Shown: piece by piece, positions 3,455-64,000 of the stretch
Layout of the letters: each line of letters begins with the position of its first letter
Numbering within the stretch: position 1 is the stretch's first letter
Assembly: GCA_965208905.1 (NCBI GenBank)
Contig: OZ242365.1
Location: forward strand, 1,696,001-1,760,000
Direction of reading: 5' to 3'
Length of the DNA: 64,000 bases
Source: Nitrosopumilaceae archaeon
Lineage (GTDB): Archaea; Thermoproteota; Nitrososphaeria; Nitrososphaerales; Nitrosopumilaceae
Position numbers and translations under genes: made by a program
The notes under the pieces: model-generated
The model's database searches: none
What the model saw: the letters and a program-made list of their open reading frames with translations, nothing else
What the model was told of the DNA's origin: nothing

Positions 3455-4498
3455 TGTATTATGTCGAAATTATTTCGCCTAGTCATCGGTGTCCCTCTCC
3501 ATCCATTCTAAGTCACTCTTCCTGACATCATCTGGTACTTTTTTGTTGTGAAATGCCTGTAGCGGGGTCTCGCCATTGTTTATGTCTAAAGACCAGTGCA
3601 GTCGCACCTCGTTGTAGTACGCGACAAACTCCGCTAGGCTGCCAAAATGACATAGTTCTTCTTCCAAGGTGCGGTGGAACCGTTCAAGCTTGCCGTTTGT
3701 TTGTGGGTGGTAGGGGCGGGTGTTGATCAACTCAATACCCCGGTCAAGCAGCTCTGCCTCAAATATAGTGGGGGTCCATGATTTTGCAGGAATCTTTCTT
3801 CTCACACCCACAAAGCACGATCCGTTGTCGGAGAGTATGGTGGCCGGGGTTCCAAACTCAACAATGCTATTTTGCAGGACTGTTACCGCGTTCTCGGATG
3901 TGGCCCCCTTGAATATCATGGCTCCAACCACACATCTTGACGCATCATCAAGATATGTGATTAATTGGTAGCCTTGAAAACGTGGATCTTTCATCGCATG
4001 CCAGTCCGTATGCCACATCGCATTGGAGTATCTGCGCTCATAGCGTATCCATTTACGCCTGCGCGATTTTGCTGCAGATAGAGTGACCATATTGTTTTCT
4101 TTCATGATTGTGTATACCGTTTTTTCACTTATTTGTATGCCCTTGTGATTTAAGTACTTGGTGATCCTTGTGACGCCTGCTGGCATTATACGATGTGCTG
4201 CTAGTACGACGTTGGTTTGCTCCTCGGTGGGAGGAATCTTGGGTCTGCCTGGCATTTGTAGTGTGGGAATCTTGCCCGTTGCACGATACATTGCCCAGAG
4301 TTGTTGTACGCGTCTCTGGCTAATCTTCATCTCTGTAGCAATGTGTGATGTACTACTACCTTTCCTGCATTGTCGAATGATATAATCTATCTGCTTCTGT
4401 GTCAGATTGACTCTCATGGGTTTGCGTGATCTATATAGACTAAAATATTCTTTGGTTGGCAGTCTAAAGTTAGGGCGAACTAATTTCCGCACAATAGA
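3455..4498 (-). mobile_element. Complete IS481-family element, 25-bp imperfect TIRs, 16-bp target duplication
   Basis: TIRs tgtattatgtcgaaattatttcgcc vs tctattgtgcggaaattagttcgcc (20/25). Direct repeat ccgcatgtggaaggtg at 3439-3454 and 4499-4514. Confidence 0.9.
3479..4417 (-). CDS. IS481-family DDE transposase
   Basis: HTH N-terminus; MWHTD..LDDASR..LSDNG..PYHPQTNGKLERFHRT rve core. Start taken at MRVNL, inside the TIRs. Confidence 0.92.
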   Translation of the reverse strand: MRVNLTQKQIDYIIRQCRKGSSTSHIATEMKISQRRVQQLWAMYRATGKIPTLQMPGRPKIPPTEEQTNVVLAAHRIMPAGVTRITKYLNHKGIQISEKTVYTIMKENNMVTLSAAKSRRRKWIRYERRYSNAMWHTDWHAMKDPRFQGYQLITYLDDASRCVVGAMIFKGATSENAVTVLQNSIVEFGTPATILSDNGSCFVGVRRKIPAKSWTPTIFEAELLDRGIELINTRPYHPQTNGKLERFHRTLEEELCHFGSLAEFVAYYNEVRLHWSLDINNGETPLQAFHNKKVPDDVRKSDLEWMERDTDD

Positions 4499-4684
4499 CC
4501 GCATGTGGAAGGTGCCAAGAACTTATGACCTGTACAAGACTGTCAAAAAAGTGACCTGAAATGGGAATGGTGGTCAACGCTTCTATTTCAACCCCTCTTC
4601 AATTATCAATGCCAACTCCCTAGTTTAACATGAAAATGTGATAGAACATACATGACGCACTTGCAATCCAGCCGGCGCAGTTCT

Positions 4685-31490: not shown

Positions 31491-32737
31491 TGGTGGGGAC
31501 CCCGCTAGAATGAGAACACTCACGTTCATACAGCTTAAAGTCGTAATGGGAGGGATGATGCCATGGTAAGAACAAAGTTTACTCCAGACCAAAAGATCCA
31601 GATCGTTTTGGAATCAATCAAGACCAATATTGGCACGGCCGAGCTGTGCCGCAAGCACAACGTTCATCCCCAAACGTTTCAAGCCTGGCGGCAAAAGTTC
31701 ATGGACGCAGGCAAGTCCGGACTGACCCATCACGGAAAGAAGGATCCGATAAAGGCCATCAAAAAGGAGAACGGCGACCTAAAGCGAATCATAGGGGATC
31801 TGACAATCGCAAACGACGCTTTAAAAAAAACCTTGGAGGCAAGCAACGATTGAACGCGGTAAAAATCATGCAGGAACAACATTTGAGCCTGCGCAAGTCG
31901 CTAGGGTATGCGGGCGTATCCAGGCGCCAATGGTACTACAAACCCAAGCCCAGAGACATGGGATTGAATCCGGATATATTGAGCACTGTGCTAGATACGA
32001 GCAGAAAGAGGCCCACGTACGGCACACGGCGCATGGCGGCCCAGATAACGCGCGATACGGGAATTGTGGTGAACCGCAAGCAGATACAGCGGATATATCG
32101 CAAAATGGGCTACATCCAGCCACAAAATACCAAAAACGACATCATTCGAGCGGGTCAAAAGCTCTTCAAACCCAAAGCCCCACACCAGTTGTGGGAGACG
32201 GACATCACATACATCTGGTGCGGTATAGACGGCTGGTGCTACTGCTTCAACGTAATTGACTGCTTTACGCGCAAGTGGATCGCCTACGCGTTTGATGTCA
32301 ATGCCACACGAGACATTGCAATCACCTCAATCACCAACGCGGTTGCCGCAGAGAAACCTGACTGCTCACAATTACGATTGCGTACGGACAACGGCAACCA
32401 GTATACGAGCCGCGACTTTAGACATGCGGTTCAGGCCCTTGGCATCGGCAAACATGAATTCATCTACAAGAATACGCCGGAGCAGAACGGACATGTCGAA
32501 TCATTTCACAAGACGCTGAAAAAGGAATACATCTGGCCGCACGAGTTTGCGAACTATCAGGAGGCAGAGACGATCATTGCAAAGGCCTTTGTAGATTACA
32601 ACACCGAGAGGATTCATTCCTCTATCGGATACATGACACCAGTAGAATTTGCCGAACAGTTGGAGATGACAAATAAATGATGGAAGATGTATGTAAAATC
32701 ATGCCGAAAACAGTAACATTCTATGGGGTCCACTCCA
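31491..32737 (+). mobile_element. IS3-family element with -1 programmed frameshift (A8 run at 31823-31830)
   Basis: TG..CA ends with TIRs tggtggggaccccgctagaatg / tggagtggaccccatagaatg; orfA HTH plus orfB DDE; no TSD. Confidence 0.9.
31563..32680 (+). CDS. IS3-family OrfAB transposase (frameshift fusion)
   Basis: OrfA 31563-31853; OrfB WETDITY..IDCFTR..RTDNGNQY..NGHVESFHKTLK. Confidence 0.9.
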
Positions 32738-32789
32738 TGAGAAGTCACAAATCATAGAGTTTTTTTAGCGGGAATTTTATACAACCGAT

Positions 32790-35694: not shown

Positions 35695-36080
35695 TTTAAT
35701 TTCCCCTTTGTTATCTTAAGCATCTGTGTATTACTGAATAATGTGTATGCACCCAAACCCAATGCGAGTAAAGAGACAAGCAATACCATACCTAGAATCA
35801 GCATTGGTGCGTACCACTCCTCACCTACAAAGAATAAAAGTACGGCGATGATACCCACGCCTATACCACCACACATCAACCCACTCCAACCATACATCAT
35901 GGTAGCAAAGAGTGAAAACATACCAATAATCAACAATGGAAATGCGCATAAAGCCCCATCGATTTCACATGCAACGACAAGCTCACTAACAACAAACGCC
36001 AAAAAAACAGTTGTGGTTACACACGCACATACTAACCCAGTGAAAAAGACATACGACAGAAATTGTCTACTAACCCTCAT
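35691..36080 (-). CDS. Four-TM membrane protein
   Basis: Hydrophobic throughout; ATGA-coupled to the RNR gene. Confidence 0.65.
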   Translation of the reverse strand: MRVSRQFLSYVFFTGLVCACVTTTVFLAFVVSELVVACEIDGALCAFPLLIIGMFSLFATMMYGWSGLMCGGIGVGIIAVLLFFVGEEWYAPMLILGMVLLVSLLALGLGAYTLFSNTQMLKITKGKLK

Positions 36081-38806
36081 GCCAAATACCGTCCCACCGC
36101 ATCCGAAGGCACCGGGTCATACTGCACATTACTGCTCTCCAAAACCTGCACATCCCTGGACGTATCCCTATACACCGTGATGCCCCTACACCCAAGCGAG
36201 TGTGCTAATACATACGCATTACGCACGTCCTGTATGGTACAGTTGGCAGCCATGTTTATCGTCTTTGATATGCTGTTGCCCATCCATCGCTGCCATGCAG
36301 CTTGTGCAAATACATGATCCGTCCAGTGTATCTGTCGCGCCGTACAATACACATCAGCATCAGGTATCATATCCTGTATCATAACCCCGCCGTTTGCCGC
36401 CACCTGTTGTATAATATCTGGGTGTTTCAGCGACAATACGGGACACCCGTAATGGAATGTGCCGACCGATACGGTCTTTGTGTATGCTAGTGAGAACACA
36501 GGTTCTATGCCGGAACTGCACCCGGCAATCATCGATATCGTACCAGTGGGGGCTATTGTAGTCGTCAATACGTTTCGTATACCGTGTCGTGTAATGTCCT
36601 GCTTTAGCACATCCCAATCCAGTGTGGCGCGATACTCCCACTCATGATATGGATAATCATCACCGGCAAACGGCAATTTTCCATCCACATATGCGGACTG
36701 CCCAAACAACGGGAATGGTCCGTGCGTTTTGGCCAATTGTACGGATTCGGCCATCGAATGATATGATATCCACTCGGCTATCCTGCCAAATATACGGTAT
36801 GCCCCGGCAGAATTATACGGTATACCAAGATGCATCAGCATGTCTGCAACACCCATCACGCCAAGTCCGATACGACGCGTCTCGTTGCTTGCCTTCTCTA
36901 TCTGTACGGTGGGGTGGCGCGTCATGTCTACAACACCGTCCAGCATCCTGGTGCATACACGTATGTCCTCGGCCAAATACTCCCAGTCCAAATCACCACC
37001 ATCAACATACATTGCCAGATTGATGGACCCAAGATTGCATGACTCGTTTGGGTATAGAGCCTGCTCACCACAATTCCCCGATAATATGTAGTCATCCTCA
37101 CCGCACTGCACAAAGTAGTTGTGCGTCTGGTGCACCAGACCGTTGTACACATCAGTCTTGCCGAGCCGTATAATACCCAGTACCGTATGATTCTTCCGGA
37201 ACAGTTTGCCAAACAGACCGCCCTTCTCCGTTTGTACACCGGGTGTTATACCCTCGGACGTCATAAAGCCCTCGGATCTCTTTTTCTCCTTTTTCTTCTT
37301 ACCCTTCCGAGCAACTAGATTCATCGGCAGTATCCCCGGTGTGGGATGACCAGTACCCTCCAGTTGTATCTCCTGTATCTCATTATGCTTGACGCTGACG
37401 CCCATGGTCTGCTCCCAGATGTCATCATCTTTGTATAGGCTGGCCACACTCATACCCGGTGTCAGGTTCTGCACCTCTATCTTCTCCAATTGTGCATCAC
37501 GTATGACGTATACGCTGTGTGTAGGCGTGCAGCGCAGCGCGGTACACTCACCGGTCTGTTCGGAACACAACACCAGACACACTACTTCTGTATTCTGCGC
37601 AGTAATGCCCGGATTCTCCATTATGCGGTATGATAATGAACCATCCTCCTCCCGTGTAACGACCTGTACCTGAGAGGGGCCCAGAGCCAGATCCCGAAAC
37701 GATACGGGTCCATCCTTTGTCAATACCTTCGTTTCGCCTCCCCAACACGGATTGGTGCTGCGCAGTGGCTCACCCCTGGCCTTCTGTAACACGTTGTGCT
37801 TGTTGATGTTATCGAAGAATATTACGCCCGGTTCCGCAGAACGGTGCGCAGATGCGGCAATCTGGTCAAGTATGTTGTTTGCATCACTCTCCCCATTCTG
37901 TATGTCGTCCCAGAACCGTACATCAGTCCCCACTGATATGTTAAAGTTTGTCAGAGCCTGCCCGTGTTTTGCCATGATGAATTTCATGATATCCTTGTGG
38001 TGTACATCAAGTATGCCCATATTGGCGGCGCGTCGCCGACCACCCTGCTTTATGATATCACTCACCCCATCAACAAATCTCATGAATGATATCGGCCCCG
38101 AGGCTGCGGATGCCGTACTTCCCACACGCGCACCTTCAGGCCGCAACGATGAGTAGTTTATGCCCACACCCCCACCTGACTGGAATATCAATGCGGTGTT
38201 TTTTACGGTGTCCATTATGCCGGGCAAATTATCAGGTATGTGAAGCACGAAACATGCAGAGAGCTGCCCCAGAGGAGTGCCCGCATTCATCAAGGCCGGC
38301 GAGTTCGGCATGAATCTCCTGTCCATCATTATGTTATGGTATTGTTGCACGGTCTCACTGAATGAATCCAAGTCGCCCTTCTTCTTCCACTGCTTTCCCC
38401 TGTACGGTATAGTATGGAATGGCGTAATCTTAAACCCATGTATCATATTGGGCGGCTCGATACCACCAAGTATGGGCATTGCCATACACACGGCGACACG
38501 CCCGAACATCTCATGCGGCGTCTCAGTTGGCTTGCCATCACCATCATGCAGAAAGTACCGCTGCTTTAGGACGTGTAGAGCGTTTGATGTAAACCCCGAC
38601 CTGTACGACTTGTATTTTATGGCCTGTGTGGGATATCCCCGCTGTATTAGTTGGTCGGTAACATAATCATGTATAGATACAGCAGAGTCCCGGGGGGCCG
38701 TGATGGCTATCTCTTCGGCCACCTCTATATCGCAGCCGGCCTGTTGCAGACTGTGTTGTAGTTTTTTGGCATCAAAGTCCTCGGTTGTTCCTGTACGTTT
38801 GAGCAT
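36077..38806 (-). CDS. nrdJ: Class II (AdoCbl-dependent) ribonucleotide reductase with ATP-cone and intein
   Basis: PNSPALMN, SACFV, QGGRRRAAN, TNPC/GE, ESCNLGS, TIAPTGTIS, SGIEP, SKTIN, YRD; no R2 gene in the window. Confidence 0.92.
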   Translation of the reverse strand: MLKRTGTTEDFDAKKLQHSLQQAGCDIEVAEEIAITAPRDSAVSIHDYVTDQLIQRGYPTQAIKYKSYRSGFTSNALHVLKQRYFLHDGDGKPTETPHEMFGRVAVCMAMPILGGIEPPNMIHGFKITPFHTIPYRGKQWKKKGDLDSFSETVQQYHNIMMDRRFMPNSPALMNAGTPLGQLSACFVLHIPDNLPGIMDTVKNTALIFQSGGGVGINYSSLRPEGARVGSTASAASGPISFMRFVDGVSDIIKQGGRRRAANMGILDVHHKDIMKFIMAKHGQALTNFNISVGTDVRFWDDIQNGESDANNILDQIAASAHRSAEPGVIFFDNINKHNVLQKARGEPLRSTNPCWGGETKVLTKDGPVSFRDLALGPSQVQVVTREEDGSLSYRIMENPGITAQNTEVVCLVLCSEQTGECTALRCTPTHSVYVIRDAQLEKIEVQNLTPGMSVASLYKDDDIWEQTMGVSVKHNEIQEIQLEGTGHPTPGILPMNLVARKGKKKKEKKRSEGFMTSEGITPGVQTEKGGLFGKLFRKNHTVLGIIRLGKTDVYNGLVHQTHNYFVQCGEDDYILSGNCGEQALYPNESCNLGSINLAMYVDGGDLDWEYLAEDIRVCTRMLDGVVDMTRHPTVQIEKASNETRRIGLGVMGVADMLMHLGIPYNSAGAYRIFGRIAEWISYHSMAESVQLAKTHGPFPLFGQSAYVDGKLPFAGDDYPYHEWEYRATLDWDVLKQDITRHGIRNVLTTTIAPTGTISMIAGCSSGIEPVFSLAYTKTVSVGTFHYGCPVLSLKHPDIIQQVAANGGVMIQDMIPDADVYCTARQIHWTDHVFAQAAWQRWMGNSISKTINMAANCTIQDVRNAYVLAHSLGCRGITVYRDTSRDVQVLESSNVQYDPVPSDAVGRYLA
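37073..37747 (-). mobile_element. Mini-intein (225 aa) in RNR at NP|CGE
   Basis: Starts CWGGETKV; block B CTPTH; ends VYNG..HNYF..ILSGN followed by extein Cys. Confidence 0.9.
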
Positions 38807-50887: not shown

Positions 50888-51415
50888 ATGATAAAGATAA
50901 ACGTGCGAAACGTGGTTGTGGGCGGTACGGTTGGCATGGGTGTGCCGATAGATGTGTTGTCGCGGCTGAGCGGCGCAATGTATGATCCTACCGAGTTTCC
51001 CGGCGTCAGGTTCCGCTTAAACGGCTGTACGGTAATGATATTCGGCACGGGCAAGGTGGTGGTTGTGGGCAGTGTAACCGGCGAGGATGCGTTTGATGCA
51101 ATAAACATGCTTGTAGGCAAGCTTGCCGGGAGCAACATACCCATAGGTATGGTAAAACGCAGGGTATGCAATGTGGTGTGTACCGCATCAATACGCGCAA
51201 GCCTTGATCTTGGGAGGGTGTCACGTATCATACCGCGCTCAATGTACGATCCGGAACACTTTCCCGGTATAATAATACGGCGGCAGAATCCCAAATGTAC
51301 CGTATTGCTGTTTGCGTCGGGCAATCTGGTGTGTGTTGGCGCCGACTCTGTGCAAAACGCATCTGATGCAGTAAACCAACTGTATGATGAATTGTGCAGG
51401 GGGAAGCAGTTGTGA
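50888..51415 (+). CDS. tbp: TATA-box-binding protein, divergent, element-encoded
   Basis: Two repeats: NVV..YDPTEFPG..IFGTGK and NVV..YDPEHFPG..LFASGN. Confidence 0.93.
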   Translation: MIKINVRNVVVGGTVGMGVPIDVLSRLSGAMYDPTEFPGVRFRLNGCTVMIFGTGKVVVVGSVTGEDAFDAINMLVGKLAGSNIPIGMVKRRVCNVVCTASIRASLDLGRVSRIIPRSMYDPEHFPGIIIRRQNPKCTVLLFASGNLVCVGADSVQNASDAVNQLYDELCRGKQL

Positions 51416-54909: not shown

Positions 54910-55097
54910 TGTATGGTCTCCCAGACCAGCGGGTCGCCTCCAAAGATGCTGGTCAGGTCATCCTTCGTCATATAATTATACAGGTACGGCGCGGCCGCAA
55001 GTATCACGCCCAGTACTATTGCCCTCGATAGCAGTTTTCGTATCTTCTCGGCTATCTCCACATTGTTGGATTCATCACCAATAGAACGATGATACAC
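54834..55097 (-). CDS. Small two-TM protein (VirB2-like candidate)
   Basis: Two hydrophobic helices; position within the secretion operon. Confidence 0.45.
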   Translation of the reverse strand: MYHRSIGDESNNVEIAEKIRKLLSRAIVLGVILAAAPYLYNYMTKDDLTSIFGGDPLVWETIQWSILVVIVFMILGLVGVARCTRDM

Positions 55098-57307
55098 TAT
55101 ACATTCGCCTCCGGACTCTTGTGTATTCTCCCACTCTTTCTGTATATTGTACCGGCCTCCTCCAGGCGCTGCATCGTACCGGCTATCTCACTATTCTCGT
55201 ATGTGCCGTGCATGTGACTCTGTAGTGTAGATATCGGCAGTCCGCCCTTGGGTATCATGTGCAGTATTTTTGACTCTATGTCATCAGTACTTTGCGTGTA
55301 TTCGCAGAATTTTAACGGGTTGGCGGGCCTGAACCCGGGAGGTATAGGTATGGACTTTCCTGCCAGTATGGCATCATATGTAATGACACTGACATGATAT
55401 GCAGTATGATCAACACCCATCTCGGCAAGCTGGCTTTTGACATGCTGTGCGTCACGTTCATTATACACCAAAAACCACACCGTACAATCAGGACTCTTCT
55501 TCCAGTTTTTGTACACCTGGCCCGGTTTTCCCGGCTTGTTTGGGTGACGCGCGGGGCCGGTCTCCACCTCTATGGCAACACGATTGCCCCAGCGCTGCAC
55601 ATCCGGATTCCCCTCGGGGCCGGTAGCGGGCTCGCATACCTCCAGATCAGCCATCTGTGATGCAGTATCGCCTACATCCATCTTTGTGTAGTAGCCGCGC
55701 CTCGTATAGTTGTCATGCAGTGCCTTTATGGTGCGTATGTGCCGCTCACCGCCGGCCCGTCCCTTCAGGGCGGCCACATCAAAGTGCTTGTTTATGCATT
55801 CAGCCCTTAAGGTGTAAATTGTATCATTGTGTCTGGATACCGCATCCACCACGCCATCGCGCCGCAGGTGCTCCAGACGCTGTGCTATGGTGCGCTTCTC
55901 CACATCAAAATGCCGAACCGCCTCATGTATGTCATGTATGCCCAGGCCGTCCGGATTATGGTACAGTATGGACATTATACACATATCCAGAGGCTTGACA
56001 TCGTATGCGTGCGCGGGATCATTTGTATATTTGGCCATGTCGACATCCACGCCATATGTAGCCAGCGAAAAGTCCACTATTTCGTCCAGTGTTGCATGGT
56101 GTACGACCGCATCATCCATGTTGCGCGTGCGCATCAGACTGCCGTGTACGTCGCCTGACGGCACCCCCATGTGGAAGCTCATGTGGAACTTGGGAATCTT
56201 TGTCAGTACCTCCGGCCTGTCTATGCCCATCTTTGGCGCAACCCTCTTGGCGGTATCCATCGTACAGTTGCTTACGATATACAGGGAGCAGTTTCCAAGC
56301 ATGGCGGCCGCATCATCCTTGTCTATGCTTTCAAGTTGCTGTGTTGCCAGCGTCATGCGTATGCCCCACTTTCTTACCTGTTGGAGCATCTCCTTGAGTT
56401 TGGTCGAATCTATCATCTGCATCTCGTCCACGTACAGGTAGAATTGCTTTGGCTTGACGTTTTGCGGGCGGGACTGCGCAAGCTTGGCGGCCGCAGTAGT
56501 CATCATCGTCAGCAAAAACGTGGTGAACAGCGTCCTCTCTATATCGTTGGAGCAGCCGGCCCCGTCAAATATCAGTATGCCGTGATTGTCCAACAGTTTC
56601 TGCATGTTGAATGCCGTACCGCCCTCAAAGAATGGCCCCACTGCGGGGTTCGATACTATGGGAGTCAGTTTGTTGTCTACTGCCGGGACCGCATCCTTTG
56701 CCTGCTTTGGAAATACCTTGTCCCAGAACAACAGGTTGTCCTGTATGTTGACGTCCGCCAGTACGATATCACGTTCGGACTCATCCAGTATTATTTTGTG
56801 CAGCAGGTCCATGCCGCCCCGACCAGACGCTATTATGCTTACGGCCGCCGCGGTCAGTATCTGCTGCATGCGCGGCCCGTCCGTCCCGAATGCCTTCAGC
56901 AAGGTTTCCGTAAAGGCCGTCGCCGCAGTTGCTGGCGAGTCACCATTCGGCTCAAGCGGGTTTATCGGCACTGCCTTTCCGGTGCGTTTCAGCTGATCCG
57001 GCGATATGTACACAAGATGGTTTGCGCGCCATTCTGGTATTCGCTGCGCAGCCCAGGCCGCCAGGTCGTGGTGCGGATCCAGTATGGCAACACCATCACC
57101 GCGTATGAGATTCTGGCGTATCAGCATCTTCAACACAGTACTCTTGCCAAAACCGCTGGAGCCCAGTATCATCGCGTGCAGCCGGTGCTTTTCGGGTATG
57201 CATATGGTATCGGCCGGTATGTTGGGATCATACCTGTCATGCGTATACCCTATGGCCGTCAGCCCATCGGGTATGGGATTACTCCCCGGCGGGACGATGC
57301 TACTCAT
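55097..57307 (-). CDS. VirD4/HerA-like coupling ATPase with C-terminal wHTH and PD-(D/E)XK-like domain
   Basis: Walker A GSSGFGKS, ILDPH, Walker B YVDEMQ, RKWG, LATQ; later ADL..AIEVE. Confidence 0.85.
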   Translation of the reverse strand: MSSIVPPGSNPIPDGLTAIGYTHDRYDPNIPADTICIPEKHRLHAMILGSSGFGKSTVLKMLIRQNLIRGDGVAILDPHHDLAAWAAQRIPEWRANHLVYISPDQLKRTGKAVPINPLEPNGDSPATAATAFTETLLKAFGTDGPRMQQILTAAAVSIIASGRGGMDLLHKIILDESERDIVLADVNIQDNLLFWDKVFPKQAKDAVPAVDNKLTPIVSNPAVGPFFEGGTAFNMQKLLDNHGILIFDGAGCSNDIERTLFTTFLLTMMTTAAAKLAQSRPQNVKPKQFYLYVDEMQMIDSTKLKEMLQQVRKWGIRMTLATQQLESIDKDDAAAMLGNCSLYIVSNCTMDTAKRVAPKMGIDRPEVLTKIPKFHMSFHMGVPSGDVHGSLMRTRNMDDAVVHHATLDEIVDFSLATYGVDVDMAKYTNDPAHAYDVKPLDMCIMSILYHNPDGLGIHDIHEAVRHFDVEKRTIAQRLEHLRRDGVVDAVSRHNDTIYTLRAECINKHFDVAALKGRAGGERHIRTIKALHDNYTRRGYYTKMDVGDTASQMADLEVCEPATGPEGNPDVQRWGNRVAIEVETGPARHPNKPGKPGQVYKNWKKSPDCTVWFLVYNERDAQHVKSQLAEMGVDHTAYHVSVITYDAILAGKSIPIPPGFRPANPLKFCEYTQSTDDIESKILHMIPKGGLPISTLQSHMHGTYENSEIAGTMQRLEEAGTIYRKSGRIHKSPEANV

Positions 57308-59375
57308 AATACCTCCCCAGTATGCTGAATACCGACTGTACGTCATTGGCGTCATGTATGATGCACTCCTCCAGCAACTCTTCGCGGCGTTTCATGTCGG
57401 CGGCGGGGTTTTGAACGTTGTTCCTAAAGCACGCCTCCGTATATTGCTGCGTATTCAGCATGTTCTTTGCTTCATGGAACGAGTCGTCCTGCAATGAATA
57501 GGTGAATATCTCTTTTAGTACGGGCTTGCCGTCTATGCCCGGCGTTACCTCGGTTATGTTTCGAACGCGGCGTTTGGATATGCCGGATATGCGGACCTCG
57601 GTAACATATACTATAAACCCCAGCAGGGCGAGTTCCGCATGGGATACGCCGCCCAGTTCCATGCGGGTAAGCGCGCCCAGGGGCGTGTTGGCATGGAAAG
57701 TCGTATTGTGCGTTACGACGCCATCCCCGTGCGTAAAGTTGCCCGTTGACTTTACCTCTATGTCGTATAGTGTGGTGCCCAGCGAGGGTATCTCCACGGA
57801 TTGTATGGTACGCCACTCATATGTATTCTGTATTGCGTGGTATCGCTCGGGTATTATATGGCATTCCCGTACAAACTCCTCCGGGCCGGATAATGCGAAC
57901 TGCCTTAAATCCGCTACCCTTTGCCTTGCAAGCAGTTTTCCGCCGTCCGCATCAAGCGGTATGGCCATCTCGTCTCCGTTTGATACATGTGTAGCCACAT
58001 CCCGGTACAGTCCACATATTACGGGTATCGAGTCGCCAATCTTTACATCGGATGCATGTATCACGCCCCTCTCCGTAATCATGGGATGGTGCGCATGTAC
58101 AGTGCAGGTGGCCCCGCCCGCGGTTATGCGCCTCCAGTCATCCTTTCCGTGCTTTACGATTGTGCCGGTTATGGGGTGCCAGTCACATTTGCCGCCCTCC
58201 ATTGAGTATGCGTATAGCGTCTCGCCGTCCCGGAACCGCTCTATTACATTTCGTATGGTATCATATGATATGGTGGAGCCGTTTTTTACAGGCATCATCT
58301 CGTTGGGCGGCAGACACAAGCCGCCGTGCCCGGTGCCCATGGATTGAAACAGGTACTTGGCATCGGCCACATCCCTTATCTCGCCCACTATCTCATAGTC
58401 GGGCTTCTGCGTGAGTGACTGGTCTATCAGTTTTTGAATGGTAACGTCGTGCTCTGAACCAACTATCGATGTGGTCTTTTTTGTGTGATATCGTACCCAG
58501 TCCTCGTGCGGTATCTGCAGCTCCAGAGAGTCCTCTATGGTTAAAATGCGCCAGCGCGGATGCATCATGGTTGTAAGTGCGGACAACAGCGTGGTCTTGC
58601 CCGAACCCGTAGTGCCTATTACCAGCCCGGCGGCGCGCGCATTGAGCAGCGACCACAGATATGCGCACATTCTGGGCGTCAGCGTATTGCCCTTCATCAT
58701 GTGTGTAATTACATACGGATTTTCCGGGAATTTTCTTATGGCTATTGTGCTGCCGGGCTCGGATACCACACTCTTGAAGGTCGCCGATATACGCGACTTG
58801 TCCTGCAGATACGTGACGGCTCCCGGCTTTGCCACGGTGGGCTCGTTTCCGGTGGGCCTGAACATCCTTGATATGAATGTGGCCATAGCCGCGTCGGTAC
58901 GAAACAGTACGTTCGTCTTTAGTGAGTGGAACCTGTTGCTGTGTACTTTGTGTTTTATGTATGCGGGCCTGCCGGGAGCGGAGACTAGTATGTCCTCTAT
59001 ATGCGGATCCGTCATCAAAGGGTGCAGTATGCCGTATCCGGTAACATCTCGGGATATGTAGTATTTGAGCGCATGAAACAACCCATCAAGTTCGCGCTTT
59101 TCGTATATCTTCATGCCAACATCCCAGAACCGCTTCTTTACTATACGTTCCAGTTCTGCGGGCGTCTTGTTCTTGACGTCCAGTACCATACTCTCCCACA
59201 TCTTCTGTATAATGCGCGTGTATGCTTTACCGGCGGCTTCTGAGAATGGCGGCTCGGTTACCAGATAGCGGCCATCCGCCGTCACCCGTACCGAGACCAT
59301 GCCGTCGGCCACGGTATACTGGTCGATTATCTCGAAATCTTCAACATCAACGCTGGTGTGGTGTATGGTATCCAT
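57300..59375 (-). CDS. VirB11/CpaF/FlaI-type secretion ATPase with intein
   Basis: DPHIEDI, IRKF, GTTGSGKTT, TIEDSLEL, PD..VGEIR, TGHG..TFHA. Confidence 0.92.
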   Translation of the reverse strand: MDTIHHTSVDVEDFEIIDQYTVADGMVSVRVTADGRYLVTEPPFSEAAGKAYTRIIQKMWESMVLDVKNKTPAELERIVKKRFWDVGMKIYEKRELDGLFHALKYYISRDVTGYGILHPLMTDPHIEDILVSAPGRPAYIKHKVHSNRFHSLKTNVLFRTDAAMATFISRMFRPTGNEPTVAKPGAVTYLQDKSRISATFKSVVSEPGSTIAIRKFPENPYVITHMMKGNTLTPRMCAYLWSLLNARAAGLVIGTTGSGKTTLLSALTTMMHPRWRILTIEDSLELQIPHEDWVRYHTKKTTSIVGSEHDVTIQKLIDQSLTQKPDYEIVGEIRDVADAKYLFQSMGTGHGGLCLPPNEMMPVKNGSTISYDTIRNVIERFRDGETLYAYSMEGGKCDWHPITGTIVKHGKDDWRRITAGGATCTVHAHHPMITERGVIHASDVKIGDSIPVICGLYRDVATHVSNGDEMAIPLDADGGKLLARQRVADLRQFALSGPEEFVRECHIIPERYHAIQNTYEWRTIQSVEIPSLGTTLYDIEVKSTGNFTHGDGVVTHNTTFHANTPLGALTRMELGGVSHAELALLGFIVYVTEVRISGISKRRVRNITEVTPGIDGKPVLKEIFTYSLQDDSFHEAKNMLNTQQYTEACFRNNVQNPAADMKRREELLEECIIHDANDVQSVFSILGRYYE
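57705..58316 (-). mobile_element. Mini-intein (204 aa) in the secretion ATPase at GHGGL|TTFH
   Basis: Starts CLPPNE; ends LYDIEV..GNF..VVTHN followed by Thr. Confidence 0.9.
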
Positions 59376-59516
59376 ACTATATTGTATGACCAGGGGGCGT
59401 TAATGGATTACAGTGGGTATGCCGGACCCGCACCGCTGGGTTAACCTAACGAGGAAGTATGACCCCGCCCGGCTGACTATATCATGCATGGTGCAATTTA
59501 AGGCTCCATATGACAT

Positions 59517-60105
59517 GGGGCTGTTAAGTTACTGTGACCCACCGGATGGTGTTAAATCTGTGACCTAGGGTGGTTAGACCTGGGGCTGTAACATCTAACA
59601 TCACATGAGATGGTGTAATATGCGTCACCATTTGTCCAAAATACATAAATAAAGTAACTACCACCATGAGTATTATGTCAGATGACGGAGATTATGTGGA
59701 TAAGAAAGATGTTGAGAGGCGTAGAAAGGAAATAGAGGAATACGCAAAGAACGATCAGCGACGCAAAATCGTCTACGATGAAGATTTATAAACCACAATC
59801 CCTACTATACAATATGGATGATATACAGAGAAAGAGGAAGGTAGATACATACTTTACGACAGGTACCCCCACTGGTCCCTACAAGGCGACATATGAGGAC
59901 AGTCTAAAGGAGATAAGGAACCCATTTGCGTTGGATAAAACCAAAGGTGCTCCGGGCTTTCCGCGAACACGTTAGAAATTTCTAGTTTTCAAATCACGTA
60001 AAACTCCTTGGGTTTTTCCACCCTACCCCTTTTCATCTTTAAAGAGATCCTGTCCGGGTCACAGATTTAACACCATCCGGTGGGTCACAGTAACTTAACA
60101 GCCCC
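59517..60105. mobile_element. Non-autonomous transposon: perfect 49-bp TIRs (GGGGCTG..), 8-bp TSD TATGACAT
   Basis: 59517-59565 is the reverse complement of 60057-60105; TSD at 59509-59516 and 60106-60113. Confidence 0.93.
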
Positions 60106-60165
60106 TATGACATAACGCTAAATCTCGTTAATTCCTTAAACGTCACCGAACACATACCATACCAA

Positions 60166-60414
60166 ATGGGCTGCATAACAACCAAGCATATAGGACGGGC
60201 CGATTATGTTTACGTGGAGTGGTACGCCAACGGTATACACAGGACAAAGTCATGCGGTAATGCGGCCAGGCCGGAGAGTTTCCGGCGTGCTCGTCAGGTG
60301 CTGGTTGATGTTATGCGCGAACGTATAGCGGCGATGGAGTCGCAGGTTGACCAAATGATTATAGACGCCGAAATCGGGGCGGTAAACGGCCAGGCTGATG
60401 AATCCCCTCCTTAA
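60166..60414 (+). CDS. Hypothetical protein
   Basis: YVYVEWY..TKSCG beta-rich N-terminus plus coiled coil; promoter box 30 nt upstream. Confidence 0.6.
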   Translation: MGCITTKHIGRADYVYVEWYANGIHRTKSCGNAARPESFRRARQVLVDVMRERIAAMESQVDQMIIDAEIGAVNGQADESPP

Positions 60415-60616
60415 ATGCAATGAATGCCATACGATACACATGTCGACAATGGAAGTACCGCGTCCCGATACGGATGCCTCACGGCCGCCGCGCTACACAC
60501 TATCACAGATTCTGGCCAATATCACATCACATACGGTAATACTTGATGCCAAAGACGATGCAGGTGCCATAACAATGGCTGAACTATACATGATGCGTCT
60601 AAGTCCTGGTGCTTGA
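60398..60616 (+). CDS. Small CxxC protein running into the repeat array
   Basis: LKCNECH; overlaps the previous gene. Confidence 0.45.
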   Translation: MNPLLKCNECHTIHMSTMEVPRPDTDASRPPRYTLSQILANITSHTVILDAKDDAGAITMAELYMMRLSPGA

Positions 60617-61645
60617 CTAGTCGAGTATGGCCAGTCGATAAGACGCTGCATGGTTGACTAGTCATGTTGTATGTATCATGTATGATGCGTCTAAGTCCTG
60701 GTGCTTGACGTCATGTATAATGCATCATGACTAGTCGAGTATGGGTAGTCGATAAGATGCTGCATGGCCAGGGTTAAGGCGCCATACTGTTGACTAGTCA
60801 TGCATGGTAGTGGCATGGCGTCATGTTACCAGGGTTAAGGCGCCATACGGTTGACTAGTCATGTTGTATGTTGCATGTATCATGTGTCATGCGTCTAAGT
60901 CCTGGTGCTTGACGTCATGTATCATGGGTAGTCGATAAGATGCTGCATGGCCAGGGTTAAGACGTAACACGGTTGACTAGTCATGTTGTATGTTGCATGC
61001 AGTATGTATCATACATCATGACTAGTCATGTATGGTAGTTGTATGGCGCCGGCATGCGACCAGTCGATAAGGCGCTGCATGGCCAGGGTTAAGACGTAAC
61101 ACGGTTGACTAGTCATGTTGTATGTTGCATGCAGTATGTATCATACATCATGACTAGTCAAGTATGGTAGTGGCATGACGTCATGTGGCCAGTCGATAAG
61201 ACGCTGCATGGCCAGGGTTAAGGCGCCATACGGTTGACTAGTCATGTTGTATACATGATGCGTCTAAGTCCTGGTGCTTGACTAGTCGAGTATGGTAGTG
61301 GCATGGCGCCGGCATGCGGCCAGTCGATAAGGCGCCATACGGTTGACTAGTCATGTTGCATATATCATGCATGATGCGTCTAAGTCCTGGTGCTTGACTA
61401 GTCATGTGTCATGGCCAGTCGATAAGACGCTGCATGGCCAGGGTTAAGGCGCCATACGGTTGACTAGTCATGTTGCATATATCATGTATAATGCATGATG
61501 CGTCTAAGTCCTGTTGGTTGACTAGTCATGTATGGTTGTTGTATTATATGACTAGTCATGTATCATGCGTCTAAGTCCGGGTGCTTGACGTCATGCATCA
61601 TGTATAATGCATCATGACTAGTCGAGTATGGTAGTGGTATGGCCG
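60590..61645. repeat. Non-coding modular repeat array, block 1
   Basis: Shuffled modules TGCGTCTAAGTCCTGGTGC, AGTCGATAAGACGCTGCATGG and CCAGGGTTAAGGCGCCATACGG, separated by ~17 GACTAGTC and CATG-rich linkers. Confidence 0.92.
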
Positions 61646-61667
61646 ATTGTTGTATGTTTTAAAAAAA

Positions 61668-63437
61668 CTATGGGTAACCAATAGCGTTAGTAAGATCGGC
61701 GTCCAGTAAATTGGCGTCCAGTAAGTTGGCTAACGTTAGGTTGGCTTCCTGTAAGTTGGCATCCCGTAGGTTGGCTCTATGTAGGTTGGTACCAACTAGG
61801 TTGGCGCCTACTAGGTCGGCGCCGTATAGGTTGGCGAACTGTAGGTCGGCGCCCAGTAGGTTGGCTAAAAATAGGTTGGCGCCTACTAGGTCGGCGCCGT
61901 ATAGGTTGGCATCATGTAGTATGGCGTACTGTAGGTTAGATTCTTGTAGGTTGACATCATGCATGTTGGCATCATATAGGTTGGCTCCCTGTAGGTTGGC
62001 TTCCAGTAGGTTGGCTCCCAGTAGGTTGGCTTCCTGTAGTATGGCATTCTGTAGGTCGGCGTAGAATAGGTTGGCGCCCTGTAGGTTGGCATCATATAGT
62101 ATGGCGCCCAATAATATGGCGCCCTGTAGGTTGGCGTTCTGTAGTATGGCATTCTGTAGGTTGGCGTTCTGTAGTATGGCATTCTGTAGGTTGGCGCCAT
62201 CTAGTGCGGCACCCCGTAGGTAGGCGCCCTGTAGGTCGGCATCAACTAGGTTGGTATTCCGTAGGTTGGCGCGCCGTAGGTCGGCTAAAGATAGTGTGGC
62301 GCCGGCTAGGTCGGCGTTCCGTAGGTTGGCGCCCTGTAGGTCAGCACCGTGTAGTTTAGCGCTCCGTAGGCTAGCGCCCTGTAGGTTGGCATCAACTAGG
62401 TCGGCGCCGTATAGGTTGGCGAACTGTAGGTCGGCGCCCAGTAGGTTGGCTAAAAATAGGTTGGCGCCTACTAGGTCGGCGCCGTATAGGTTGGCATCAT
62501 GTAGTATGGCGTACTGTAGGTTAGATTCTTGTAGGTTGACATCATGCATGTTGGCATCATATAGGTTGGCTCCCTGTAGGTTGGCTTCCTGTAGGTTGGC
62601 TCCCAGTAGGTTGGCTTCCTGTAGGTTGGCTTCCTGTAGTATGGCATTCTGTAGGTCGGCGTAGAATAGGTTGGCGCCCTGTAGGTTGGCATCATATAGT
62701 ATGGCGCCCAATAATATGGCGCCCTGTAGGTTGGCGTTCTGTAGTATGGCATTCTGTAGGTTGGCGTTCTGTAGTATGGCATTCTGTAGGTTGGCGCCAT
62801 CTAGTGCGGCACCCCGTAGGTAGGCGCCCTGTAGGTCGGCATCAACTAGGTTGGTATTCCGTAGGTTGGCGCGCCGTAGGTCGGCTAAAGATAGTGTGGC
62901 GCCGGCTAGGTCGGCGTTCCGTAGGTTGGCGCCCTGTAGGTCAGCACCGTGTAGTTTAGCGCTCCGTAGGCTAGCGCCCTGTAGGTTGGCATCAACTAGG
63001 TCGGCGCCGGCTAGGATGGCGCTCCGTAGGCTAGCGCCCTGTAGGTCGGCGTTCCGTAGGTTGGCGCCCTGTAGGTTGGCGAGGTTTAGTGTAGCGCCCT
63101 GTAGTTTAGCGCCCTCTAAGTTGGCGCCCTGTAGGTCGGCTAAAAATAGGTTGACATCCTGTAGGTTGGCGTCCGCTAGGTCGGCACCCTGTAGGTTGGC
63201 GTCCGCTAGGTCGGCACCCTGTAGGTTGGCGTTCTGTAGTATGGCACCCTGTAGGTTGACTTCATATAGGTTGGCGTTCTGTAGTATGGCGCCCGTTAGA
63301 TTAAAGCCGGCCATATTGGCGCCGGCAAAGTTCCGATTCTGTAAATCCTGGAATGAAAGATCTTCATGTGCGACTGCAGCCGGCCATGCAGACACAATAA
63401 GAATGAATGATAACAATAACAACAAGTAACCATTCAT
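61668..63437 (-). CDS. Secreted pentapeptide-repeat protein with ~600-bp internal tandem duplication
   Basis: MNGYLLLLLSF signal peptide; ANLQG repeats; 62041-62400 is identical to 62641-63000. Confidence 0.92.
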   Translation of the reverse strand: MNGYLLLLLSFILIVSAWPAAVAHEDLSFQDLQNRNFAGANMAGFNLTGAILQNANLYEVNLQGAILQNANLQGADLADANLQGADLADANLQDVNLFLADLQGANLEGAKLQGATLNLANLQGANLRNADLQGASLRSAILAGADLVDANLQGASLRSAKLHGADLQGANLRNADLAGATLSLADLRRANLRNTNLVDADLQGAYLRGAALDGANLQNAILQNANLQNAILQNANLQGAILLGAILYDANLQGANLFYADLQNAILQEANLQEANLLGANLQEANLQGANLYDANMHDVNLQESNLQYAILHDANLYGADLVGANLFLANLLGADLQFANLYGADLVDANLQGASLRSAKLHGADLQGANLRNADLAGATLSLADLRRANLRNTNLVDADLQGAYLRGAALDGANLQNAILQNANLQNAILQNANLQGAILLGAILYDANLQGANLFYADLQNAILQEANLLGANLLEANLQGANLYDANMHDVNLQESNLQYAILHDANLYGADLVGANLFLANLLGADLQFANLYGADLVGANLVGTNLHRANLRDANLQEANLTLANLLDANLLDADLTNAIGYP

Positions 63438-63477
63438 GTGTTTACGTCTGGCGTTGTGGTTATAGTTGTTTGTGGTG

Positions 63478-63882
63478 CATGGTTGACTAGTCATGTATCA
63501 TGGGTAGTCGATAAGACGCTGCATGGCCAGGGTTAAGGCGCCATACGGTTGACTAGTCATGCATCATGCAGCATGGCCAGTCGATAAGATACTGCATGGT
63601 TGACTAGTCATGTTGCATGTATCATGCATGATGCGTCTAAGTCCTGTTGGTTGACTAGTCATATTGCATGTATCATGTATCATGCATGATGCGTCTAAGT
63701 CATGTATGGTTGACTAGTCGAGTATGGCCAGTCGATAAGACGCTGCATGGCCAGGGTTAAGGCGCCATATGGTTGACTAGTCATGTATCATGTATAATGC
63801 ATCATGACTAGTCGAGTATGGTAGTGGCATGGCGGCCTGCATGCAGCCAGGGTTAAGATGCCATACTGTTGACTAGTCATAC
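63478..63882. repeat. Non-coding modular repeat array, block 2
   Basis: Same modules and orientation as block 1; ~8 more GACTAGTC. Confidence 0.9.
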
Positions 63883-64000
63883 AAGTCCAAGAGGCGGCTT
63901 GTGGAGAACGGCAAATATGAGTTGAACCGCGACAACACCACAATACACACAATACATGTGGGCTCATATTCGGATGACTAGTTGCCGGTCTAACCTTCCC

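Follow-up and report, generated by a model that had tools for sequence, protein, structure and literature searches.

A strain-specific 3.3-kb insertion carrying non-coding arrays of palindromes and promoter-like boxes in an ammonia-oxidising archaeon

A 64,000-nucleotide stretch from the chromosome of a Nitrosopumilaceae archaeon (assembly GCA_965208905.1, contig OZ242365.1, positions 1,696,001 to 1,760,000; hereafter the window, G000:C1:1696001-1760000 in chromosome coordinates) contains two non-coding arrays on either side of a gene for a pentapeptide-repeat protein. Here we report that a single 3,293-bp insertion (60592-63884), for which empty sites exist, comprises both arrays and the gene, and that array units combine an invariant palindrome with boxes resembling the promoters of resident mobile elements. 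Our best reading of this architecture is that the two arrays are split halves of a single non-coding mosaic array carried by a strain-specific insertion. As to their nature, we suggest tentatively, and with somewhat less than even confidence, that they are amplified operator/promoter DNA, serving a small non-autonomous cassette as a multi-site platform for protein binding.

The host genome is a single contig of 2.21 Mb with 45.6% G+C. It belongs to an ammonia-oxidising archaeon, as indicated by an archaeal AmoA (E 1.7e-116), genes for TBP and TFB and a topoisomerase VI just past the window, and parts of the stretch are present in sponge-metagenome runs.

Palindrome, modules and boxes of the arrays

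A preliminary description, made from the letters of the window alone, had placed two non-coding arrays around the pentapeptide gene, with about 25 palindromes and all modules in one orientation, and each of these claims is borne out. The left array (1,065 nt) and the right array (408 nt) sum to 1,473 nt. All six frames are closed in both, with a longest open stretch of 56 codons and 5-28 stops per frame in each array. The palindrome GACTAGTC occurs 17 times on the left and 8 times on the right (25 copies, against 0.0 expected from 300 dinucleotide shuffles), so that half of the 50 copies in the 2.21-Mb genome sit in the two arrays. A form lacking the central TA, GACGTC, marks four further unit boundaries, and only one single-substitution variant of the palindrome was found, at no unit boundary.

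Other short palindromic sites are also enriched in the arrays, as the preliminary description had proposed: CATG (71, against a shuffle mean of 22.9), TGGCCA (12 against 0.5), GGCGCC (9 against 0.1), GACGTC (4 against 0.1) and ATGCAT (10 against 3.3). For GGCGCC the proposal holds in part, most of the 37 copies within 60590-63882 being located in the gene. The share of bases within 6-bp palindromes is 0.296 in the arrays and 0.129 after shuffling.

In the assembly, the units draw on modules shared in variable order. Where three modules had been proposed we count four types, together with runs of CATG heptads and with hairpin units. All 31 module cores lie on the minus strand (A 9, B 9, C 7 and D 6) and none on the plus strand. 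Three module words are confined to the arrays within the genome, namely GCGTCTAAGTCC (8 of 8 copies), AGTCGATAAG (10 of 10) and GGTTAAGGCGCC (6 of 6), and the string CCGTATGGCGCCTTAA is found four times. Superimposed on the modules are higher-order tandem repeats of 132 nt (3.1 copies), 117 nt (3.0 copies) and 58 nt (1.9 copies), which are 85-95% identical; the best tandem rows of the arrays match at 80-92%. The dominant short periodicity is 7 and not 3: the match at a lag of seven is 0.37 over the arrays versus 0.26 in shuffles. Its source is the spacers rich in CATG (0.58); values are 0.23-0.24 for modules A, B and D and 0.38 for module C, and each run comprises only 2-5 heptads. Two of the units, each of 56 nt, are hairpin units in which inverted repeats are seen.

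On the minus strand (the sense strand for the gene), each unit opens with GAC(TA)GTCAA, the palindrome of the unit being TGAC(TA)GTCA, and a box resembling a B-recognition element (BRE) and TATA sequence then follows at a fixed 20-22 nt (18 cases). The distance from palindrome to TTA is 22 nt for boxes B and C (10 cases) and 20 nt for box A, shortened to 18 nt where the palindrome is the TA-less GACGTC (8 cases). The letters before TTA are GCACCAGGAC in box A, CCATGCAGCGTC in box B and CCGTATGGCGCC in box C, with TATA-like cores TTAGAC, TTATCG and TTAACC, respectively; the promoter box found outside the arrays (see below) has CCATATAGCGCC before a TTAAAT core. The three boxes align with each other and with this promoter box, and constitute three paralogous types.

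The insertion and its gene

The insertion is bounded by two copies of the 5-bp direct repeat ATACA. At an empty paralogous site (G000:C1:584877-585428), 87% identical to flanks 60128-60590 and 63885-63973, the sequence runs uninterrupted through TTATACAAGTCC with a single ATACA. A second empty site was found in run X5, which represents a related strain (five of its seven placed contigs are 95-99% alike): a contig of 1,256 nt covers 60238-60590 and is then equal to 63885-63914 except for one letter. Contigs of runs X6 and X1 likewise leave at 60590; because these have long unplaced parts, only X5 was counted as an empty strain. Placement covered 58000-61680, the left part of the locus, and used contigs, not raw reads. 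The strain-specific insertion was absent from the preliminary description, as was the sister array described below.

In run X1, the probable source sample, 98 of 211 placed contigs match 58000-61680 at 99% or more, and all 30 bins are covered, those of the array included. The same run holds contigs that combine array-like junction strings with one unique flank; six of seven tested strings have no hit in the genome and therefore represent other array contexts in that sample. Contigs of RNA run X7 were placed only on 59686-60274 and none on the left array; because this run was placed as contigs and its strain may lack the insertion, the result is silent on array transcription. Of the sampled words, the four RNA runs contain a share of 0.07-0.10.

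The insertion contains neither a transposase nor a rep gene, and it has no terminal inverted repeats, nothing being inverted at its termini, by eye, beyond TGA. Across the genome, Pfam identified no Y1 transposase, resolvase or phage-type integrase (control genomes do match Y1_Tnp), and three abundant rve-type insertion sequences have ends with no relation to the cassette tips. We considered and rejected a DDE transposon, for which the 5-bp direct repeat is present but inverted termini beyond TGA and a transposase in the insertion are not, and an IS200/IS605-derived palindrome-associated transposable element (PATE), for which hairpins are present but Y1_Tnp has no Pfam match in the genome. A circular form of the cassette would be compatible with the data and, because both arrays share one orientation, would hold one continuous 1.47-kb array. 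The junction of such a hypothetical circle aligns over its full 60 nt to an internal unit at 61220-61286 (score 44), a result without discriminating power since random internal joins averaged 38 and 90% of them also spanned the joint. The target to the right of the insertion, AGTCCAAGAGGCGGCTTG, resembles by eye the plus-strand box A, AGTCCTGGTGCTTG, a likeness consistent with recombination at short homologies.

The insertion has a single gene. Its product is a 589-aa pentapeptide-repeat protein with a hydrophobic, signal-like N-terminal segment, and the protein is predicted to be secreted. The gene contains an internal duplication (61737-62684 versus 62322-63284, 88% identity over 968 nt), and its 5' region is unique in the genome. 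The TATA-like AACTATAA upstream of the ATG is likely to be the gene's own promoter, its geometry resembling that of the 11 box promoters described below, and a stretch of seven T that immediately follows the stop codon is a likely archaeal terminator. An origin of the gene as a copy of the paralogue in the window was ruled out (37% identity). Pentapeptide-repeat proteins occur in seven of nine congeners, with a best identity of 55% and none close, and no repeated flanks were present around homologues at five loci of relatives.

Several observations concern the surroundings of the insertion and of its empty paralogous site. The latter sits in another element (L113, G000:C1:580001-590000), which encodes a 708-aa protein with an HUH-like HFHIIAAGY motif and a RelE-like small protein, both recognised by eye, and has a long open reading frame (ORF) that looks as if it may code for a type I restriction subunit. 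Left of the insertion, a 600-bp segment (59505-60104) has inverted repeats of about 55 bp at its ends (59506-59565 and 60058-60118). It is missing in run X5, where a contig skips from 59504 to 60105, and run X6 has an opposite-strand joint at 59512/60106. The segment carries two very small ORFs (41 and 65 aa) and resembles an invertible element or a miniature inverted-repeat transposable element (MITE).

Promoter boxes, a sister array and the distribution of related sequences

The promoter likeness proposed earlier for the arrays is confirmed, as is the near-match noted at about 63757: one copy of box C, CCATATGGCGCCTTAA, is one mismatch from the element promoter box CCATATAGCGCCTTAA. More generally, box C and the promoter box are identical at 14-15 of 16 positions. 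The window contains three exact copies of CCATATAGCGCCTTAA and 14 matches at up to three mismatches, against 0.5 expected. Genome-wide there are 5 exact copies, 11 at up to one mismatch and 18 at up to two, where by our calculation about one would be expected by chance. Ten of the 11 sites with at most one mismatch lie outside the arrays, and nine of those ten are followed, as judged by eye, by an ATG about 25-30 nt after TTAA. On this geometry the nine are predicted leaderless archaeal promoters. Array modules depart from it in having TTAACC, TTATCG or TTAGAC cores and no ORF at promoter distance.

The outside sites cluster at 1.608-1.747 Mb, with one at 2.13 Mb, and a further box-like site lies at 1.776 Mb. 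Within the window, boxes precede a TBP gene, a ribonucleotide reductase gene (36077-38806, behind an exact box) and two small ORFs. The TBP gene is the divergent, element-borne paralogue that the preliminary description had postulated; it is indeed present and has its own box promoter. A region of about 150 kb within G000:C1:1608000-1776500 contains two of the genome's four TBP genes, both divergent and the second at G000:C1:1630852-1631373, and four of its nine TFB genes (1.61-1.69 Mb) in addition to the box promoters. Mobile elements of ammonia-oxidising archaea often carry their own basal transcription factor genes. For example, TFIIB homologues are reported for all integrative-conjugative elements identified in PMC6563490.

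A genome-wide scan for local repeats (33 regions) and for CATG density (13 regions) revealed one further such non-coding locus, a sister array at G000:C1:476119-477300 composed of a 238-nt unit in 4.4 copies at 100% identity, with a diverged partial unit at its flank. Four of its segments, 13-17 nt long, are also present in the window arrays, for the most part on the opposite strand: GCACCAGGACYTAGACG (16/17), CCGGACTWAGACGCATG (16/17), GCATGACGTCATG and GCCATGCTGCATGATG. The pattern GGACYTAGACG occurs 13 times in the genome, five times in the sister array and eight times in the window arrays; in nine congeners it reaches at most two copies, the same rate as a control pattern. The sister array belongs to a different strain-specific element, with a D5_N/DUF5906 primase-helicase gene 1.7 kb away, and is directly upstream of a gene (G000:C1:475635-476087) for a 151-aa orphan protein, whose N-terminus matches PHROG 582, 'Arc-like repressor' (E 2.4e-5). 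Its sub-repeats are copies of the promoter region of this abutting gene, and both arrays can therefore be read as amplified promoter/operator DNA. The preliminary description had also named ribbon-helix-helix (RHH) proteins as binders. The Arc-like gene is one lead in that direction; Pfam finds no RHH domain there, and the RHH_1 hits in the window are below the cut-off. The Arc-like protein has no sequence match in the PDB, its single-sequence AlphaFold2 model was unusable (mean predicted local distance difference test score, pLDDT, 46.5), no ParA was identified near the sister array, and the primase-helicase found no relative in IMG/VR.

We found no description of such arrays in the open-access literature searched. 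A pattern of three GACTAGTC sites recovered 68 GTDB loci and 9 IMG/VR loci, none of which (0/77) shares modules beyond the palindrome, and two IMG/VR matches to the box B pattern were dismissed as chance matches within coding sequence. Unrelated arrays punctuated by TGACTAGTCA occur on a contig of an archaeal metagenome-assembled genome (L018/L019) and on metagenome contigs (L089/L090 and L093/L087), and also on Hymenobacter plasmid-like contigs, with the cluster beside a Rep_3-type initiator. On mobile DNA, the TGACTAGTCA palindrome may recur as a site of protein binding.

By gene content, the right half of the window is mobile-element DNA, and several insertion sequences are present there in addition to the features in the table. 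The 57300-59375 conjugation-type ATPase contains an insert that is likely to be an intein, with a Pfam Intein_splicing match below the cut-off (E 3.7e-5, residues 372-556). Three families of insertion sequences are highly active in this genome. The TnpB-only element is present in about 18 copies of about 1,470 bp, and Pfam found no Y1 or serine transposase for it in the genome; there are about 15 copies, at least 99.8% identical, of a 1,044-bp rve-type element (e.g. window 3455-4499) and about 13 of a 1,247-bp one (e.g. window 31491-32738). A 171-bp MITE-like element with 30-bp inverted ends is present in eight identical genome copies (L112:4681-4851 and seven other sites) and in diverged form in two congeners. 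The genome also has an array of clustered regularly interspaced short palindromic repeats (CRISPR) at G000:C1:981218-990483, made up of 128 repeats (36-37 nt). The insertion is matched by none of the 127 spacers, of which 126 have no other match in the genome and one has an 18-nt match at 109,872.

Features of the insertion and its surroundings (window positions)
Feature	Position	Strand	Details
Exact promoter box CCATATAGCGCCTTAA	50848-50863	+	40 nt upstream of element TBP gene
Divergent TBP paralogue	50888-51412	+	in mobile-element region; Pfam 8.6e-38
TraG/TrwB-like ATPase	55097-57355		right half of window
T2SSE-type ATPase	57300-59375	-	691 aa; intein-like insert
Box-like site TCATATGGAGCCTTAA	59498-59513	-	3 mismatches; upstream of secretion-ATPase gene cluster
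Small ORF interrupted by insertion	60398-60616	+	intact 89-aa paralogue at G000:C1:584863-585132, minus strand
Left ATACA copy	60587-60591		5-bp direct repeat; insertion boundary
Left array	60592-61656	-	21 units bounded by GACTAGTC (17) or GACGTC (4); modules A, B, C and D, heptad runs, 132-nt and 117-nt higher-order repeats
Hairpin unit	60973-61028		two GACTAGTC sites around a near-palindromic CATG-rich stretch; DNA fold -17.7 kcal/mol, z -6.6, 0/200 shuffles as stable
Hairpin unit, second copy	61105-61161		DNA fold -18.7 kcal/mol, z -7.4
Run of seven T	61661-61667	-	minus-strand letters; directly after stop codon
Pentapeptide-repeat protein gene	61668-63437	-	589 aa; Pfam Pentapeptide 1.8e-175; only gene of insertion
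TATA-like AACTATAA	63460-63467	-	starts 30 nt upstream of ATG at 63437; read by eye
Right array	63477-63884		units at 63477-63879, minus strand: 8, GACTAGTC-bounded, oriented as in left array
Box C copy CCATATGGCGCCTTAA	63757-63772	-	one mismatch from element promoter box; single occurrence
Right ATACA copy	63880-63884		5-bp direct repeat; insertion boundary
TnpB-only insertion sequence	64170-65641		right of the insertion, followed by topoisomerase VI

Origin and possible role of the arrays

From this anatomy we infer protein binding and a purpose for it, and likewise a circular form and a means of insertion. The arrays would have arisen as amplified, degenerate promoter/operator DNA of resident mobile elements, and would form a cis-acting platform with many sites for DNA-binding proteins encoded by the elements. 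Candidate binders are a dimeric protein of the RHH kind, recognising the palindrome or the heptads, and the divergent TBP/TFB set of the elements, recognising the boxes. Bound in this way, an array could be a centromere-like or sponge-like locus of a small non-autonomous cassette, which may have entered through a staggered cut, or as a circular form that recombined at short homologies. We favour such a platform because the spacing between an unmutated palindrome and three diverged boxes is constant, because cores persist between two otherwise different arrays, and because the position of the sister array is one typical of RHH operators and centromeres. RHH-type centromere arrays are known from R1 parC and TP228 parH. 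According to PMC9499535, the RHH protein omega of pSM19035 binds runs of 7-10 heptads overlapping promoters, at parS. The arrays described here are similar in combining 7-bp repeats and short boxes over promoter regions, in consistent orientation and on mobile DNA, with the sister array directly upstream of a predicted Arc/RHH-like gene. They differ in size, since known sites comprise contiguous repeats over about 50-100 bp and these arrays span 0.4-1.2 kb with short heptad runs, and in having no ParA/ParM partner gene and no RHH gene in the insertion.

A number of results weigh against the binding platform. Unit spacing is irregular (22-87 nt), the box cores make poor TATA boxes (TTA and three mixed bases), and the insertion encodes no DNA-binding protein. 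The copies are young, as seen from the identities of the sister array (100%) and of the higher-order repeats (85-95%), so that the palindrome may owe its invariance to recency or gene conversion, not to selection. The Arc-like protein beside the sister array is without relatives; Pfam finds nothing in it, PHROG being the sole library with a match. The neighbourhoods of the window arrays and of the sister array have no protein in common, and only one of seven loci with distant primase-helicase homologues has a non-coding repeat (a 37-nt unit in 4.8 copies). The preliminary description had proposed a search for similar arrays in related genomes, and none came to light: no homologous array was found in 40 relatives and no module-pattern cluster in nine congeners, and the 13-mer TTGACTAGTCATG, with 15 copies here, has at most two in any other of 200 family genomes. 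Nor were array homologues found in IMG/VR or among plasmids and phages, or by a 20-mer search of JGI metagenome contigs. Many of the genomes searched are draft assemblies, which may miss repeats.

The main rival is that the arrays are functionless, fast-evolving, satellite-like DNA, seeded by promoter regions, amplified by replication slippage and unequal crossing-over, a mechanism put forward for the tandem repeats of Borg elements, and tolerated as passengers. We regard this as a serious although somewhat unlikely explanation. The higher-order tandem repeats, the heptad microsatellite runs with their strong lag-7 signal in the spacers, the perfect sister array with a diverged partial unit at its flank, and the restriction of young, unconserved copies to this one genome among those searched all fit it well. 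So does the precedent of Borg tandem repeats, which PMC9879509 describes as non-coding and on archaeal mobile DNA, recent, perfect and genome-specific, with partial seed repeats at the flanks and unit lengths that are not multiples of three. The sister array likewise has at least three mismatch-free head-to-tail units and partial repeats. The window arrays differ from the Borg repeats described there in joining four module types in variable order instead of perfect head-to-tail units, in not being A-rich, in their palindrome-plus-box grammar, and in their location on a 3.3-kb insertion in the chromosome of an ammonia-oxidising archaeon. The satellite reading accounts poorly for three box types which, with fewer than half of their letters in common, are all spaced equally from a palindrome that has not mutated, for cores of 11-17 nt common to two arrays of otherwise different sequence, and for 31 of 31 module copies in one orientation. 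That the locus is an assembly artefact or a decayed coding repeat, a refutation raised at the outset, is very improbable. Such repeats are hard to assemble, and the gene between the arrays is itself repetitive; however, the X1 contigs cover the left part of the locus in full at high identity, the module words are restricted to these arrays, and neither the closed frames nor the 7-nt periodicity is that of coding DNA.

Alternatively, the arrays could be promoter banks, the right one boosting or regulating the pentapeptide gene and the left one firing short or antisense RNAs towards the interrupted ORF. The boxes do all point in the direction of the gene, and box C is only one or two of 16 letters away from promoters that look functional. 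We nevertheless consider it rather unlikely, as the cores are degenerate compared with TTAAAT, neither an ATG nor an ORF lies at promoter distance, the gene has a TATA-like site of its own between array and ATG, and Rfam identified one tRNA and no other RNA family in the window. It is quite improbable that the arrays are cis-acting cassette ends, in which many binding sites for a transposase or recombinase mobilise the gene between them. The direct repeat at both sides, the empty sites, the array-like junction strings and unique flank that X1 contigs hold and this genome lacks, and tips reading TG...CA if the duplication is taken as 4 bp speak for mobility of this kind. The arrays are nonetheless direct and not inverted, far longer than known transposon ends and without terminal inverted repeats, their tips are unlike those of the rve-type elements, and the genome shows no recombinase of the classes searched with Pfam.

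Other known systems offer partial likenesses. Bacterial interspersed mosaic elements (BIME) and repetitive extragenic palindromes (REP) of enterobacteria are dispersed genome-wide in alternating orientation and are tied to RAYT transposases. The present arrays are similar as intergenic mosaics of palindromic units and other short motifs in variable order, but occupy two loci, in one orientation, in a genome with no Y1 transposase. With CRISPR they share a recurring short palindromic sequence in non-coding DNA. The preliminary description had set CRISPR aside and this stands: the stretches between palindromes are repeated modules, not unique spacers, and the repeat of the genome's real CRISPR array is unrelated. 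In phage P4, the ori and crr loci are repeated cis sites bound by its primase-helicase, and the sister array does lie near a D5/P4-type primase-helicase gene. An iteron origin, which had also been suggested, is not supported: spacing is irregular, the insertion has no rep gene or AT-rich unwinding region, the locus shows no A/T run other than the 7-nt putative terminator and no turn in GC skew, and six of the seven loci with distant primase-helicase homologues are without a non-coding array.

Returning to the binding platform, a more far-reaching and more speculative version, to which we give little credence, is that the insertion represents a new kind of non-autonomous archaeal cassette. Its array would be a decoy titrating the transcription factors of co-resident elements (divergent TBP/TFB, or RHH regulators), or a promoter-derived centromere. 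If this were true, the array would be a weapon or a hitch-hiking device in conflict between elements inside a symbiont.

Looking ahead, the locus offers a natural, concentrated set of candidate sites for element TBP/TFB, related to the promoter of one of the TBP genes. Because these sites are carried by a cassette present in one strain and absent in another, the question of what such factors recognise could be addressed by ordinary binding and transcription assays. The arrays also extend fast-evolving non-coding repeats on archaeal mobile DNA to another lineage and to a mosaic architecture.

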